DNA from: a virus
Lineage: Duplodnaviria > Caudoviricetes
DNA: 27,278 nt
Virus record (IMG/VR): IMGVR_UViG_3300049228_000050
Coordinates: 1-27,278 of that record
Direction: 5' to 3' (one strand)
The notes under the pieces were generated by a model that was given only the letters and a program-made list of their open reading frames with translations, did not search any database and was not told the origin of the DNA. The translations under genes and the position numbers were made by a program. Positions 19,623 to 25,157 of this stretch are shown piece by piece. Position 1 is the first letter of the stretch. The number at the start of each line of letters is the position of its first letter.

Positions 19623-20356
19623 TCGCCTATCACGGCCGGCAGTCGATAAAAGATGACGTGCTCGCCAAACTAGCTGCGCACCGCGCCGCTGATGAGCTGA
19701 TCCAGGACTATGGATATTGGAGGGACGGCAAAGGCTGTGCGGTTGGCTGCACTATCGAGGGCAGTAGCCACGCCAAATACGAAACGGAATTCGGAATTCC
19801 ACAAGCGCTCGCTCGAATCGAGGACTCTATTTTCGAGGCGTTGCCAGTAGCTCAGGCGCGGCTTTGGCCTGAGCGATTCATGGGTGCAATTCAGCCAGGC
19901 GCTGATCTGTCGCTTGTAGTCTGGAAATTTCTTCGCCGGATACTAGATGCGGGGGTTACTGCGGGAATATCTGATCCGATTGTGGCCCCAGCTATCCATA
20001 AAGTGAACGATCTATTAGAGATCCTCGGAAACGGCGGCGACATATCCGCCGCGTGGGCCGCGAGGGCCGCCGAGAGGGCCGAGAAGGCCCCCGAGAGTGC
20101 ACCGTGGGCCGAGAGTGTCGCCGCGTGGGCCGAGAGTGCCGCCGCGTGTGCCGCGAGGGCCGCCGCGTGTGCCGAGAGGGCCGCCGAGAGTGCAACGTGG
20201 GCCGCGAGTGCCGCCACGTGTGCAACGTGTGCCGCGAGTGCCGCCGTGATGGCCGCGAGGGACGGGAGGTCCGCAAGGGGCGAGAAAGCCGCCGCGCGTG
20301 CAACGTGGGTTCGGTTCTCGAACGTCATGATCGAATTATTGGAGGCCGCGCAATGA
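19619..20356 (+). CDS. Phage protein with GCAVGC N-domain and Ala-rich repeat tract, 245 aa
   Basis: H..AD..IQ..YW..GKGCAVGC...H..YE...GIP..LA..ED.IFE.LP pattern; ATGA coupling at both ends. Confidence 0.8.
   Translation: MIAYHGRQSIKDDVLAKLAAHRAADELIQDYGYWRDGKGCAVGCTIEGSSHAKYETEFGIPQALARIEDSIFEALPVAQARLWPERFMGAIQPGADLSLVVWKFLRRILDAGVTAGISDPIVAPAIHKVNDLLEILGNGGDISAAWAARAAERAEKAPESAPWAESVAAWAESAAACAARAAACAERAAESATWAASAATCATCAASAAVMAARDGRSARGEKAAARATWVRFSNVMIELLEAAQ
20048..20309 (+). repeat. Degenerate tandem coding repeat (9-bp units in 21- or 30-bp blocks)
   Basis: GCCGCGTGG, GCCGAGAGT, GCCGCGAGG and GCAACGTGG units separated by GCC. Confidence 0.85.
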
Positions 20357-21706: not shown

Positions 21707-22063
21707 ATGACTCAGCACAACAGCAAGACTGAGGCGGGGCCGCATTGCTCACATTGCCGCTTTCCTTTGCCAGCAAGTGACAGCGGGCTGCGCCACTACG
21801 GCACGCACACGGCGCACCAAGAGAATGAGTGCCTGCGGTTGCTGCATGCGGAAATTGAGCGACTGAGTGCGGCGCTGCGGAAGGTGAACGACCAAGCGGA
21901 ACACTTCGAGCGGCATTGGTACTTGGCAAAAGAAGACGCCGACCGCTACGAATTTGCCAAGACGCTTACGGGGCAAGTGGTGACGATGGAGACATTCAAG
22001 AACCGTGGCGGCGCTGAACTTGACCAGGCTCTCGACGACGCGATGGCCGAATTTTGTCCGTGA
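21707..22063 (+). CDS. Hypothetical mosaic phage protein, 118 aa
   Basis: AEIERL coiled segment and DADRY...LD.A.D.AM C-terminal pattern. Confidence 0.7.
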   Translation: MTQHNSKTEAGPHCSHCRFPLPASDSGLRHYGTHTAHQENECLRLLHAEIERLSAALRKVNDQAEHFERHWYLAKEDADRYEFAKTLTGQVVTMETFKNRGGAELDQALDDAMAEFCP

Positions 22064-22087
22064 TTGAGTAAGCGAGAAGGAGTAACG

Positions 22088-22168
22088 ATGGAAACGACCA
22101 TGGGCAGACTGAACCGCGAGGTCGATGCCATTGAGGAGCGCCCGCCTTTGGGGCGTCCCCTCGAATGA
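22088..22168 (+). pseudogene. 26-aa mini-ORF or gene remnant running into an attC-like site
   Basis: Strong AAGGAG RBS; METTMGRLNREVDAIEERPPLGRPLE. Confidence 0.4.
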
Positions 22169-22178
22169 CTTGTTAGAG
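22121..22178 (-). mobile_element. attC-like site, one end degenerate
   Basis: TTGAGGAGCGCCC-GCCTTTG-GGGCGTCCCCTCGAA-TGACTT-GTTAGAG; the minus strand reads CTCTAACAAGTCATTCGAGG, a typical attC start. Confidence 0.7.
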
Positions 22179-22198
22179 CGCATTCTTGGGAGAAAAAC

Positions 22199-22408
22199 AT
22201 GGCATGGATCGATAGGCAGAAGCAAGAGCCAAAGATTGGACAGACCATCATTGCTTGGGGCGAAGGTGATGGACCGTGCGGCTCGGTGGCCTGCTTTTGG
22301 GACTACGACGCTTGGCTTGATGTTTCGGATAGACGCGACGTATCATTTCGGTATTGGATGCCAGCCCCGGAATCGCCTTACGAGGCTGCGGCCTCGCTCC
22401 CCCTCTAA
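22199..22408 (+). CDS. DUF551-like protein, 69 aa
   Basis: MAWI.....P.....I...YWMPAPESP; GGGAG RBS. Confidence 0.75.
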   Translation: MAWIDRQKQEPKIGQTIIAWGEGDGPCGSVACFWDYDAWLDVSDRRDVSFRYWMPAPESPYEAAASLPL

Positions 22409-22422
22409 ATGACTGGTTGGGC
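22375..22422 (-). mobile_element. Eroded attC-like site
   Basis: GCCTTAC...CCCTCTAAATGACTGGTTGGGC; the right half resembles the 22121 site. Confidence 0.55.
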
Positions 22423-22435
22423 CTCAATGATAAAC

Positions 22436-22502
22436 GAATCTCCCCGCCCCGGGGCTGTTGTTCGACCGGGCGCACGCGACCCCGCTAGCGTGATGATGGC
22501 TG
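22436..22502 (+). repeat. 67-bp direct repeat, copy 1
   Basis: GAATCTCCCCGCCCCGGGGCTGTTGTT...GCGCACGCGACCCCGCTAGCGTGATGATGGCTG, near-identical to 24491-24557. Confidence 0.92.
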
Positions 22503-22555
22503 AGCGAGAGTCGCGCCGCCGGTTTCTGGGACTGGATTGACGCATACCACCTACT

Positions 22556-22750
22556 ATGACGCCTAACGATCCAAGCTCATCGTCGGGGCAGCGCGTGGTT
22601 AAAGAGCGTCGAACGATTCATTTGCTTCGGTGCGGGCAGACGCTGTGCGGCAAAACCGGACCGCCATCAAATTGGGGAGCAGATCACGCTTGGGCAGAAG
22701 ATCATGACCGCAAGCACGTCAACTGCCCAGGATGCCTCAATGCTCGCTAA
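22556..22750 (+). CDS. Small Cys/His zinc-binding protein, 64 aa
   Basis: IH......TLCG...VNCPGC. Confidence 0.65.
   Translation: MTPNDPSSSSGQRVVKERRTIHLLRCGQTLCGKTGPPSNWGADHAWAEDHDRKHVNCPGCLNAR
22561..22604 (-). mobile_element. Internally deleted attC-like site
   Basis: GCCTAAC-GATCCAAGCTCA...GCAGC-GCGTG-GTTAAAG. Confidence 0.6.
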
Positions 22751-23072
22751 CGAAGGGTTGGGCGGCTGGGTGCCAGTGGCAGAACGCATGCCAGACCACG
22801 GCGTGACTGTGCTGGTGTGCTACATGAACAGAGCCGGCAAATGGCGACGCATCCGTGCAAAGTGGGTCGCCGCGAAAACCAGTGAATCGAGCAGCGAAAG
22901 TGATATCGGCGAGTACGACGAGGCGGCTGATTGCTACTACGACCCCGAAAACTGGTATGAGCAAATCGACAATTGGCCCGAGTACACCGCCTGCACAGTT
23001 GGCGAAGGGCAGGTGACGCACTGGATGCCTCTGCCTGAGCCGCCTAACGTCGAAGTTAAGCGGGCGCCGTAA
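22740..23072 (+). CDS. DUF551-family protein
   Basis: WVPVAERMP.....VLV...VTHWMPLPEPP. Likely start ATG 22740 (alternative 22704). Confidence 0.85.
   Translation: MLANEGLGGWVPVAERMPDHGVTVLVCYMNRAGKWRRIRAKWVAAKTSESSSESDIGEYDEAADCYYDPENWYEQIDNWPEYTACTVGEGQVTHWMPLPEPPNVEVKRAP
22745..22763 (-). mobile_element. Collapsed attC remnant (R boxes only)
   Basis: CGCTAAC-GAAGG-GTTGGGC. Confidence 0.55.
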
Positions 23073-23100
23073 GGCGCTCCGCTTGGACGTAGGGTTAGCC
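23042..23100 (-). mobile_element. Intact 59-bp integron attC site (top strand = minus)
   Basis: Plus strand folds GCCTAAC-GTCGAA-GTTAAGCGG-GCGCC-GTAA-GGCGC-[T]-CCGCTTG-[G]-AC-GTAGG-GTTAGCC: R and L boxes, unpaired spacer, extrahelical G and T. Confidence 0.88.
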
Positions 23101-23141
23101 AGCACCCGCACAAACGCTGGCATGCAACTACAGGAACCACA

Positions 23142-23420
23142 ATGGAAACGATGATTCAACCGAAGGTGACAGGCTACCGCCAACTGAGCGAGGCCGAAGT
23201 GGCGCTGATGAACGAGGGCAAGGCGCTGGCCGAAGCCTGCGGCACCTACATTGCCAAGCTGCGCACGCACCCTAGCGCACACCCGATGGGCCACAACGCG
23301 CCCACCGAGCCCGGCCAATTGCCGACGCTGGACCAGCGATGGGTAAGCATTGGTGCCACCGACATTCAGCGCGGATTCATGGCCGTGATTCGCGGCATTG
23401 CGCAACCAACCACCTTCTGA
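23142..23420 (+). CDS. acb2: Acb2-family anti-CBASS cyclic-oligonucleotide sponge, 92 aa
   Basis: KVTGYRQLSEAEVALMNEGK and RWVSIGATDIQRGFMAVIRGIAQPTTF match the recalled Acb2 signature (GYR.LS..E...MN..K / RW..I..TD.Q.G.MA..R.IAQP..F). Confidence 0.88.
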   Translation: METMIQPKVTGYRQLSEAEVALMNEGKALAEACGTYIAKLRTHPSAHPMGHNAPTEPGQLPTLDQRWVSIGATDIQRGFMAVIRGIAQPTTF

Positions 23421-23427
23421 GGATGCC

Positions 23428-23616
23428 ATGACAACCTGGGCCGACGAGTACGCGACGATGCTGGAGGACTGCGAGAAGCGCAGCGAGAAGCTGACCGATT
23501 GGGAGTGTGGATTCGTGGATTCGTTGCAGCGGCAGATTGCCGATGGTCGCCGGCCCAGCGCGAAACAGGTGGAGACGCTGGACAACATCTGGGAGCGCGC
23601 CACGGCGCGTGGATAG
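23428..23616 (+). CDS. Small helical phage protein, 62 aa
   Basis: GAGGA RBS; LTDWE.GFVDS......S.KQ...L..IW pattern. Confidence 0.75.
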   Translation: MTTWADEYATMLEDCEKRSEKLTDWECGFVDSLQRQIADGRRPSAKQVETLDNIWERATARG

Positions 23617-23645
23617 TGCCGCCTAACAAGATTTAATCATCCGAA

Positions 23646-24551
23646 ATGACAAATAAATCTCCCCGCCCCGGCGTCGGCAGTCTATTCTCCGGGGTCGGAG
23701 GCTTTGACCTCGGCCTAGAGCGCGCGGGAATGTCGATCTCGTGGCAAAGCGAGATAGATCCATACGCGTCGGCCGTGCTGCAAAAACATTGGCCGGGAAC
23801 ACCGAATTTAGGCGACATAAAAGAGATCATAAATGCACCAACTGTCGATATCCTATGCGGGGGATTCCCTTGCCAACCCCACTCAGTCGCCGGGAAGCAG
23901 CGCGGCAAAGAAGACGAACGCCACCTGTGGCCGGAGTACATGCGACTGGTGCGAGCAATTCGACCGCGTTGGGTGCTGGCTGAGAACGTGCCTGGGATCA
24001 GAACTACCGCAGCCGATGAGGTCCTTGGCGATTTGGAAGCGGAAGACTACGCCGTCTGGCCGCTCGTGGTGGGTTTGTACGCCTTCGGCGCGCAGCATGA
24101 ACGCATGCGCATCGTCTTTGTTGCCCTCGATAAGCGCACAGAGTTATGGGAGCAACCGCGGCGGCTCTGCAGGGCGCGTGGGGAAGGACCGGCCGAGCCT
24201 AAAGACCTTGGCACTGCGCGGCATGATGCTGCCCACGATCAAATCAGTGGACGGCCATCCGAAGGGCAACGGCGGACTGAATCGGAATTCGCCGGGGTTG
24301 GATGCGTTGGCGAAAGCTGGATTGCTGAGCGCACAGAATGGGGGCGATCTGAACCCCCGGTGGTGCGACGGCTTCATGGGATTCCCCCCCGGCTGGTCAG
24401 AGCTCGACGAAGAGAGCGCATCAAGTGCCTTGGGAATTCCTTCAGCCCAATCCACGCGGAGGCACTCGGCAGAATGATCATGCGATTTGAGAATCTCCCC
24501 GCCCCGGGGCTGTTGTTAACCGAGGCGCACGCGACCCCGCTAGCGTGGTGA
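23646..24551 (+). CDS. C5-cytosine DNA methyltransferase, large (alpha) polypeptide, 301 aa
   Basis: Motifs I (SLFSGVGG), IV (GFPCQ), VI (ENV), VIII (HERMRI) and X (LGNS). Confidence 0.92.
   Translation: MTNKSPRPGVGSLFSGVGGFDLGLERAGMSISWQSEIDPYASAVLQKHWPGTPNLGDIKEIINAPTVDILCGGFPCQPHSVAGKQRGKEDERHLWPEYMRLVRAIRPRWVLAENVPGIRTTAADEVLGDLEAEDYAVWPLVVGLYAFGAQHERMRIVFVALDKRTELWEQPRRLCRARGEGPAEPKDLGTARHDAAHDQISGRPSEGQRRTESEFAGVGCVGESWIAERTEWGRSEPPVVRRLHGIPPRLVRARRRERIKCLGNSFSPIHAEALGRMIMRFENLPAPGLLLTEAHATPLAW
23833..24477 (+). CDS. Nested alternative-frame methyltransferase small (beta) polypeptide; true start uncertain
   Basis: LPS/LPT-type TRD-like repeats and LNPRWCDGFMGFPPGWS (motif IX-like), which is missing from the main frame. 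Confidence 0.7.
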   Translation: MHQLSISYAGDSLANPTQSPGSSAAKKTNATCGRSTCDWCEQFDRVGCWLRTCLGSELPQPMRSLAIWKRKTTPSGRSWWVCTPSARSMNACASSLLPSISAQSYGSNRGGSAGRVGKDRPSLKTLALRGMMLPTIKSVDGHPKGNGGLNRNSPGLDALAKAGLLSAQNGGDLNPRWCDGFMGFPPGWSELDEESASSALGIPSAQSTRRHSAE

Positions 24552-24557
24552 TGGCTG
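24491..24557 (+). repeat. 67-bp direct repeat, copy 2
   Basis: Near-identical to 22436-22502. Confidence 0.92.
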
Positions 24558-24732: not shown

Positions 24733-24969
24733 ATGAAAGAACAAACGCGACTAGACGTACTCGCACTGTGCGATGCAGCAGAACGCATGCGAGATGCTGC
24801 TAATAATCTTTGGTGGGCGAATAATGTTTCCGAGGGAAACACGATAGGCGAAGGCGTGGCGCCGACCATTGAAGAAGCGGAACTTGCACATGGGGAGGCT
24901 TTCGAAAAATTAGCCAAAGCTGAATTTAGTGTTAGGCGATGCTTGAATAAGGAAGGGGCGCATAAATGA
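24733..24969 (+). CDS. Hypothetical protein, 78 aa
   Basis: GAGGGG RBS; next ORF follows at its stop. Confidence 0.6.
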   Translation: MKEQTRLDVLALCDAAERMRDAANNLWWANNVSEGNTIGEGVAPTIEEAELAHGEAFEKLAKAEFSVRRCLNKEGAHK

Positions 24970-25157
24970 CCCGCGCATCAAAGCTAGTAGCGCGGCAAGC
25001 CGAAGACGAGGGCCTATGGTCTATTCCGTTTGATCGTCTTGAAACTATTCACGAGGCGTGTTTACGAATCGCTTTACGAAAGCTCCATGCGGCAGTGGAA
25101 GCTGACGAAGCGGATAAGAAGTCCCGCTCAGAGCCTAACGCCCCGAGCGGGACGTGA
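24966..25157 (+). CDS. Small phage protein, 63 aa
   Basis: LV.RQAEDEGLW...EA.L..ALR.LHAAVE pattern; AAGGAAGGGG upstream. Confidence 0.7.
   Translation: MTRASKLVARQAEDEGLWSIPFDRLETIHEACLRIALRKLHAAVEADEADKKSRSEPNAPSGT

Follow-up and report, generated by a model that had tools for sequence, protein, structure and literature searches.

The early region of the phage contig analyzed here carries an integron-type cassette that encodes an Acb2 sponge in inverted orientation relative to its attC site, and the cassette was probably put there by a host integron integrase acting in trans. The window, meaning the whole stretch of DNA that was analyzed, is an entire virus record of 27,278 nt, linear and rated 75% complete. 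Its virion and packaging genes (terminase, head-tail connector, capsid and tail) all lie on the minus strand, and an early gene run occupies the plus strand from about 19.1 to 25.2 kb. Besides small genes, the early run contains genes for a Sak4-like annealing protein, a DUF551 protein and a cytosine methyltransferase, as well as the acb2 unit (acb2 plus a gene for a 62-aa protein). The features of the cassette and its surroundings are given below.

22105..22604, minus strand: three decayed attC remnants between small plus-strand ORFs (cores at 22172, 22416 and 22561/22598; read by eye)
22704..23072, plus strand: DUF551 gene of the neighboring cassette (PF04448, E 1.7e-12; from the ORF list)
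22746..22763, minus strand: collapsed attC heading the DUF551 cassette (its two cores are separated by 5 nt; absent from the geometry-scan calls)
23042..23100, minus strand (the top strand of the site is the window minus strand): attC of 59 nt with intact geometry, from the geometry scan and folding
23048..23626, no strand assigned: cassette of 579 bp, comprising attC body, leader, acb2 and the 62-aa gene up to the next core (relatives align over 23038-23627)
23094..23141, plus strand: leader, with a 6-bp hairpin (23098-23103 with 23116-23121) and a ribosome binding site (23132-23135)
23142..23420, plus strand: acb2, 92 aa (PF24729, E 1.6e-13; PDB 8H2J and 8IXZ, E 4e-11)
23428..23616, plus strand: gene for a 62-aa protein from a family without a name, 7 nt beyond the acb2 stop codon; predicted three-helix bundle
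23621..23638, minus strand: right-hand site with an R-type core, predicted crossover between 23626 and 23627 (an L-like box and 4 nt precede it on the minus strand)
24920..25150, minus strand: two half sites at the far end of the early run (cores at 24931 and 25133; read by eye)

The 92-aa protein is securely a member of the Acb2 family. It scores 51 bits against PF24729, the Acb2/Tad1 hairpin profile (cut-off 27), and a sequence search of the PDB returned two chains at E ≤ 1, both of PaMx33 Acb2 (8H2J at E 4.4e-11), with which it shares 39% identity. The structural model is a long antiparallel pair of helices (residues 17-41 and 65-87; pLDDT 82), joined by a proline-rich loop whose length differs among relatives. 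In a fold search of 48,161 chains the top match was T4 Vs.4 (7UQ2; Z 7.5, rmsd 4.8, 83 aligned) and the second was PaMx33 Acb2 (8H2J; Z 7.5, rmsd 4.6, 80 aligned), both matches standing less than 1 Z from unrelated helical hairpins. PF24729 and the two-helix hairpin are therefore features held in common with PaMx33 Acb2 (8H2J, 8IXZ) and T4 Vs.4 (7UQ2); unlike both, the window gene is carried on an attC cassette. The Pfam hairpin family is also common to Tad1 (7UAV, 8KBB). Assignment of the window protein to Tad1 was rejected, because no Tad1 chain in the PDB matched it at E ≤ 1 (six matched a protein of the related locus L034) and because its length is 92 aa, compared with about 125. The first-pass annotation had named the protein Acb2 and pointed to its N-terminal Tyr and Lys and its C-terminal RW..I..T..Q motif; these residues are present as Y12, K27 and R66-W67..I70..T73..Q76, and the profile, PDB sequence and fold comparisons bear the name out.

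The intact attC site lies immediately ahead of the acb2 leader and is canonical when read on the minus strand. In that direction R'' (23100-23094) is followed by a 5-nt spacer, L'' (23088-23081) and a short stem-loop, and then by L' (23061-23055), a 6-nt spacer and R' (23048-23042); the C + 6 bp + A spacing matches that of the aadA1 site. The extrahelical bases on the plus (bottom) strand are G23085 and T23078, 6 bp apart, and crossover is predicted between 23047 and 23048. Read on the plus strand, the same hairpin (23042-23100) has the 6-nt spacer first and an extrahelical base in its right arm. The R' box has the GTTRRRY form, the L box contains one G-T wobble, and R'' deviates from RYYYAAC at position 2, as it does in 34 of 167 related sites. 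The hairpin is more stable than dinucleotide shuffles (z -2.98 and -2.51), and the geometry scan called no other site in the window. No Rfam match was obtained, and exact-pattern scans of viral contigs for the attC body and the right junction gave zero matches. Given the bottom-strand rule for attC recombination (Loot et al., 2017, PMC5371416), the minus-strand reading assigns the site to the acb2 unit. Ownership of the intact attC by the acb2 cassette, as first proposed, is upheld on this reading, and the 12-mers at 23094 and 23616 (10/12 complementary) do enclose acb2 and the 62-aa gene on the plus strand. The DUF551 reading frame enters the attC and ends within the hairpin loop. We considered whether the site might belong to the DUF551 gene, the acb2 cassette having lost its own, and rejected this because the spacers and extrahelical bases place the site on the minus strand.

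The same inversion is found in related arrays. One geometry rule was applied to both strands of 219 loci, oriented by acb2 or the partner gene, together with the window (1.1 Mb). It called 203 sites, 200 of them on the strand opposite the query gene, in a set in which the loci were picked by two query genes and some contigs occur more than once; after removal of duplicates the figure was 167 of 170. One shuffled copy of the loci (1.1 Mb) yielded six calls, four on one strand and two on the other, against the 203 of the real loci and window, and both sites called in a class 1 integron used as a control (L253) lay on the gene strand. The extrahelical C is present in 147 of 167 related sites. In this G+C-rich DNA, comparing longest ORFs failed to tell the two gene orientations apart (45 versus 32 of 77), and orientation was judged instead by ribosome-site, stop-position and Pfam tests. 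A ribosome site and ATG follow the attC on the gene strand in 101 of 140 cases and on the other strand in 1 of 140. ORFs of at least 50 aa that end no more than 24 nt before the core number 86 on the plus strand versus 22 on the other, and Pfam matches were obtained for 14 of 75 plus-strand ORFs (six of them Acb2) versus 0 of 75 on the minus strand. The cassette genes are inverted relative to attC, unlike those of bacterial cassettes: a canonical cassette has its ORF on the top strand with its own attC at the 3' side, and the ORFs here and in the related arrays are on the bottom strand.

In other respects the site resembles those of class 1 integron cassettes (the aadA1 and cmlA5 sites of L253): it has their R and L boxes, spacers of 5 and 6 nt, a pair of extrahelical bases separated by 6 bp and crossover between the G and the TT of the core. 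The differences are that the ORFs here occupy the bottom strand with attC at their 5' end, that the attC is often replaced, and that the cores are predicted to be paired on both strands. Predicted core pairing in the phage sites has medians of 0.84 and 0.70 for the two strands (n = 161), compared with 0.2 and 0.3 for the L253 control's top strands, and is consistent with cutting on either strand. In one phage array (L083, 1590-1649), an inverted attC is 95% identical over 58 nt to the class 1 aadA1 attC.

Phage CALINs are already known (Qi et al., 2023, PMC9892861). The arrays described there likewise consist of attC-bounded small genes in phages without IntI, and methyltransferase cargo occurs both there and in arrays related to the window. 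Genes inverted relative to attC and sponge cargo are not described in the accessible text of that paper, and the window array differs further in being decayed, with one site intact. Under the CALIN definition (at least two attC sites and no intI nearby), the window has one called site and six remnants read by eye. In the literature consulted, mostly open papers, neither inverted phage cassettes nor a cassette-borne acb2 gene was reported, and the figures or supplement of Qi et al. (2023) may show orientation. Integrons store anti-phage defense cassettes (bioRxiv 10.1101/2024.07.02.601686 and 10.1101/2024.07.02.601719); the use of the cassette format in phage-host conflict is common to both settings, and the window is the mirror case, with counter-defense on the phage side.

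The acb2-plus-partner unit is mobile across phage populations. It recurs in other arrays (13 copies at 84-96% DNA identity), it has 14 different upstream site ends across 18 contigs, and 21 different sequences follow its 3' end. In sequencing runs X3 and X4, some contigs cover the acb2 unit and nothing else, with loose ends at 23042, 23091, 23618 and 23627, which puts the breakpoints at both attC cores. Among 162 distinct sites, pairs with the same attC body share the downstream leader alone in 21 cases, the upstream gene end alone in 1 and neither in 27, counts that are not independent and come from loci chosen by two query genes. The 17 body clusters offered 29 possible cases of a change of flank. 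The upstream flank had changed in 28 of these, indicating nearly constant exchange at the R' junction, as expected from IntI chemistry; the downstream flank had changed in 18, so that the R'' junction is also often exchanged. The attC body is not stably owned by its cassette, which plain bottom-strand IntI chemistry fails to predict. Divergence begins a median of 3 nt into the body in pairs with a common gene end (2 nt for unrelated pairs) and a median of 3 nt from the other core in pairs with a common leader (1 nt for unrelated pairs). Because the two-gene unit has such varied neighbors, phages likely trade counter-defense genes via a host integrase.

Most sponge genes are not cassette-borne. 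An attC heads the gene in 9 of 80 acb2 loci by a strict count (11 by leader) and in 2 of 54 tad1 loci. The first 15 nt of the leader are common to cassettes with other genes, tad1 included, as judged by a pattern scan. In a complete 41-kb phage (G003; L034, 2868-4110), an acb2 cassette is followed by a Tad1 homologue (8KBB, E 6e-13) in a cassette of its own, and the two have near-identical attC bodies and the same leader. Inverted cassettes with a NADAR domain and an Rv2179c-like exonuclease were seen in L151 (3298-3816) and L223 (146-706), and it is plausible that NADAR is counter-defense cargo.

No tyrosine recombinase (PF00589) was detected in the window contig, rated 75% complete. PF00589 was found in 1 of 10 array-bearing viral contigs and in 0 of 2 near-complete array phages; the complete phage of L034 has no recombinase, and G005 encodes a tyrosine recombinase. 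The arrangement of a complete integron, with intI beside attI, is absent from the window, where the methyltransferase gene comes directly after the attI-like right-hand site. On the bacterial side, bins of Rhodoferax, Rubrivivax and Azonexaceae hold the nearest acb2 relatives, and this suggests a betaproteobacterial host. Three of five bacterial genomes or bins with an attC- or core-headed acb2 encode IntI above the TIGR02249 cut-off, in each case on another contig, the three calls coming from metagenome bins. In the experiments of Qi et al. (2023; PMC9892861), five of six phage attC sites recombined with IntI1, and top strands did so at a lower level. In the mechanism we favor, the plus (coding) strand of the hairpin would be the IntI substrate, cut between 23047 and 23048, and a host integron integrase acting in trans would insert the unit into the phage early region. 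As a result of the inversion the genes would be read from the phage early promoter. Acb2 would form its usual hexamer and protect against CBASS, and the 62-aa gene is likely a co-traveling early gene whose product would act by protein binding.

One bacterial locus bears on the role of host integrons. On a single 6.3-kb contig from one of these IntI-encoding bins (L281; G007:C260), intI lies near formyltransferase and HicB genes, and the two cassettes nearest to it (100-1760) are of the inverted phage type, with a canonical third cassette behind them, the second and third sites having been read by eye. This order is the one expected if host IntI inserts phage-type cassettes at its own attI. An ATG lies inside the attC of one of the inverted cassettes. 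A wider scheme can be drawn in which phages of Betaproteobacteria act as a cassette factory, host IntI cutting either strand, everyday early genes (sponges among them) thereby gaining new attC sites, spreading between phages in inverted form and entering host chromosomal integrons (as in L281), and the 62-aa protein serving as counter-defense cargo; we hold this scheme, in its entirety, to be tentative and on balance doubtful.

An explanation without IntI is that attC sites entered once from host integrons and that Sak4 has since swapped blocks through the hairpin arms and leaders. The Sak4-like gene is 1.3 kb upstream of the acb2 unit, and this protein together with the shared 15-nt leader means that some junctions could come from homologous exchange. 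The occurrence of one leader in acb2, tad1 and other cassettes, the R''-side exchange in 18 of 29 cases, the 10-nt direct repeat that flanks this copy and the likeness of several remnants to slip deletions all fit such swapping. However, shared sequence stops within 4 nt of the cores in 66 of 77 gene-end pairs and 109 of 139 leader pairs, the 21:1 asymmetry obeys the bottom-strand rule, and even widely differing bodies conserve the extrahelical bases and the spacer lengths. Moreover, just 2 of 45 Sak4-relative loci have any site at all. We consider the Sak4 explanation unlikely.

The cassette had initially been described as recently gained and probably still mobile. Recent gain is plausible: the acb2 unit has 62% G+C compared with 56% for the contig (5.6% of equal-sized windows are as high), GC3 is 0.76 and 0.83 in its two genes versus 0.56-0.65 in core genes, other copies are 84-96% identical, and neither acb2 nor the 62-aa gene is present in any of the 45 Sak4-relative loci, although these come from distant relatives. 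The acb2 unit adjoins the short attI-like site, and the sites to its left are decayed, the remnants at 22105..22604 folding no better than shuffles. This order fits a first-position, latest insertion, though two half sites lie to the right. In run X1, one contig spans 23343-25075 with zero differences from the window and a second spans 22059-23233; X1 contigs cover the junctions of the unit, which are therefore no assembly slip in that run, itself possibly the source of the window.

The right-hand end is a short attI-like or collapsed site and not an attC. No second attC was found 3' of the 62-aa gene, where there is a core and a short attI-like box. The attI1 of L253 has the same layout but a 5-nt spacer, the window spacer being one base shorter. 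Short attI-like sites in the array loci number 13 on one strand and 0 on the other. Four copies of the same such site lie mid-array in L182 (at 1126, 1452, 2151 and 3602), and shortened attI sites within arrays are reported to recombine (PMC12901181). Of 27 related acb2-plus-partner units, 15 terminate in a sequence with 12/12 complementarity. The right end found here, with its two mismatches, occurs in none of the 27 and is peculiar to this copy; it has become a direct repeat of 10 nt of the left flank. At the left end, the plus (bottom) strand of the attC is predicted to adopt an alternative fold (-18.1 versus -13.0 kcal/mol for the recombinogenic hairpin), and the cores of the recombinogenic strand have a predicted pairing of 0.014, a value equally low in 7 of 161 sites. 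The predicted misfolding of its attC and the short attI-like site at its other end make it probable that this copy is nearly fixed. Contigs that skip the acb2 unit were absent from runs X1-X4, and no empty allele was found among the Sak4 relatives, which have no DNA in common with the array beyond the query gene. Mobility thus holds for the unit across phages, but for this copy the lack of a recombinase, the low core pairing, the missing second attC and the absence of a skipping contig argue against it.

The 62-aa protein belongs to a large family, with 105 close homologues and 1,684 clusters at E ≤ 0.001, the Atlas clusters being mostly viral. Its model is a three-helix bundle (pLDDT 89), and D14, C15, R18, W25, E26, F29, S32, Q47 and W55 are conserved. 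No name for it came from Pfam, PHROGs, NCBIfam, PDB sequences or the ESM Atlas, and its best fold match (Z 7.0) was among generic bundles, with no specific fold. Neither the acb2 unit nor the 62-aa protein had a match in 50,697 GenBank phage records. Each of the two genes is mostly found without the other. Counted by partner loci, acb2 comes before the 62-aa gene in 7 of 26 from viruses and in 21 of 80 from metagenomes, these being the best 80 of 249. Counted by acb2 loci, the 62-aa gene lies 3' of acb2 in 4 of 80 from viruses and in 2 of 33 from genomes. In a tree of 73 distinct copies of the 62-aa gene, adjacency to acb2 appears in two clades, in one instance with the gene order reversed; 47 copies lack both acb2 and the cassette end. 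The association is a loose, old one and not a fixed pair. In L101, L103 and L213 the intact partner is preceded by the 3' end of acb2 alone, acb2 having been truncated there. Prediction of a complex of two Acb2 chains with the 62-aa protein scored 0.01 (mark 0.32), a result that speaks neither for nor against an interaction. In two single proteins the 62-aa domain follows another domain: Lar_restr_allev (PF14354) in P0117, one protein on one contig, and PF14216 in P0113.

Our best guess for the 62-aa protein is a small early factor that binds a protein. The earlier proposal that it is a candidate anti-defense factor fares poorly; its position beside acb2 is what speaks for it, with no family or specific fold match to add, and an anti-defense role appears unlikely, if far from negligible. 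A stronger version would have this copy still actively excising and the 62-aa protein acting as a dedicated counter-defense partner of Acb2. We regard this as quite improbable. It would account for the intact attC geometry next to an attI-like site, the 7-nt gap between the genes, the adjacency in two separate partner clades, the restriction-alleviation (Lar) fusion and the spread of the family over 1,684 clusters, but it sits poorly with core pairing of 0.014 on the active strand, the lack of a second attC, the derived right end and the low co-occurrence counts given above (4/80 and 2/33; 7/26 and 21/80), and the Lar fusion is a single case.

Window Acb2 likely sequesters the cyclic di- and trinucleotides of CBASS, a ligand range predicted from its residues. 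Cao et al. (PMC10312549) assign Y11 and K26 of PaMx33 Acb2 to dinucleotides and R67, T74, A70 and I71 to cA3, and Hadary et al. (bioRxiv 10.1101/2025.08.24.671296) add L14 and P90 as pocket residues. The dinucleotide pocket (PaMx33 Y11, L14, K26 and P90) is kept in the window protein as Y12, L15, K27 and P89. In the trinucleotide pocket R66, I70 and T73 are kept, and PaMx33 A70 is S69 here. Y12, L15, K27, R66, T73 and P89 are invariant across 41 aligned relatives. Pocket residues alone are insufficient for cA3, because T4 Acb2 D61R, in which the missing arginine is supplied, still does not bind it (PMC10312549); in PaMx33 Acb2 a helix kink at E64 opens the cA3 pocket. Nor is the target system set by family membership, since 10 of 46 Acb2 homologues tested inhibit type I Thoeris (Hadary et al., bioRxiv 10.1101/2025.08.24.671296). 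The sponge might accordingly bind 3'cADPR and counter type I Thoeris, instead of or besides CBASS, and the tandem acb2 and tad1 cassettes of the complete relative L034 are in keeping with this. The chance of it seems small, however, as all six named residues of the CBASS-type PaMx33 protein (Y11, L14, K26, P90, R67 and T74) are kept at 39% identity, and Acb2_43 relies on other residues, located on an extra strand (Hadary et al., bioRxiv 10.1101/2025.08.24.671296).

In the related arrays, 29 of 74 attC sites of at least 85 nt hold a ribosome site and ATG in the loop, so that such an attC encodes the N-terminus of the next protein; examples are L033 (1237-1333) and L045 (4113-4217). It is very improbable that selection or mobility acts on the attC hairpin itself, as a portable joint from which passenger early genes receive their translation starts and stops. 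Those starts, the DUF551 stop in the loop of the window site and the same body at both ends of the unit in L178 would suit this view. However, the window site lacks a start, a body is much more commonly accompanied by its downstream leader than by the upstream gene, and no transposase-type duplication pattern is seen across sites.

Taken alone, the window Acb2 is a further member of a known family, 97% of whose bacterial copies are located in prophages according to an anti-defense survey (PMC11724313), and its inverted-cassette setting matters more. Integron recombination sites, turned round, carry anti-defense genes in phages, and inverted phage cassettes provide a defined place to mine counter-defense genes, the 62-aa family being one candidate. 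How new cassettes form is largely unknown (Loot et al., 2017, PMC5371416); one unit with 14 attC ends, and genes with and without attC borders, bear on this question.

Several minor features of the early region were also noted. A 67-nt direct repeat (22436-22502 and 24491-24557) has 91% identity, and a 16-nt third copy lies at 23655-23671, at the start of the methyltransferase gene. Exact matches to the 16-nt repeat (22436, 23655 and 24491) in viral contigs (n = 15) were unrelated. A 245-aa early gene contains G+C-rich 21/9-nt periodic repeats (20025-20309) that encode Ala-rich repeats. The cytosine methyltransferase ORF (23646-24551) overlaps a 214-aa ORF (23833-24477) in a different plus-strand frame. 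The end of the 214-aa ORF resembles what we take to be a methyltransferase C-terminal motif, and the pair is possibly a frameshifted or two-frame gene.
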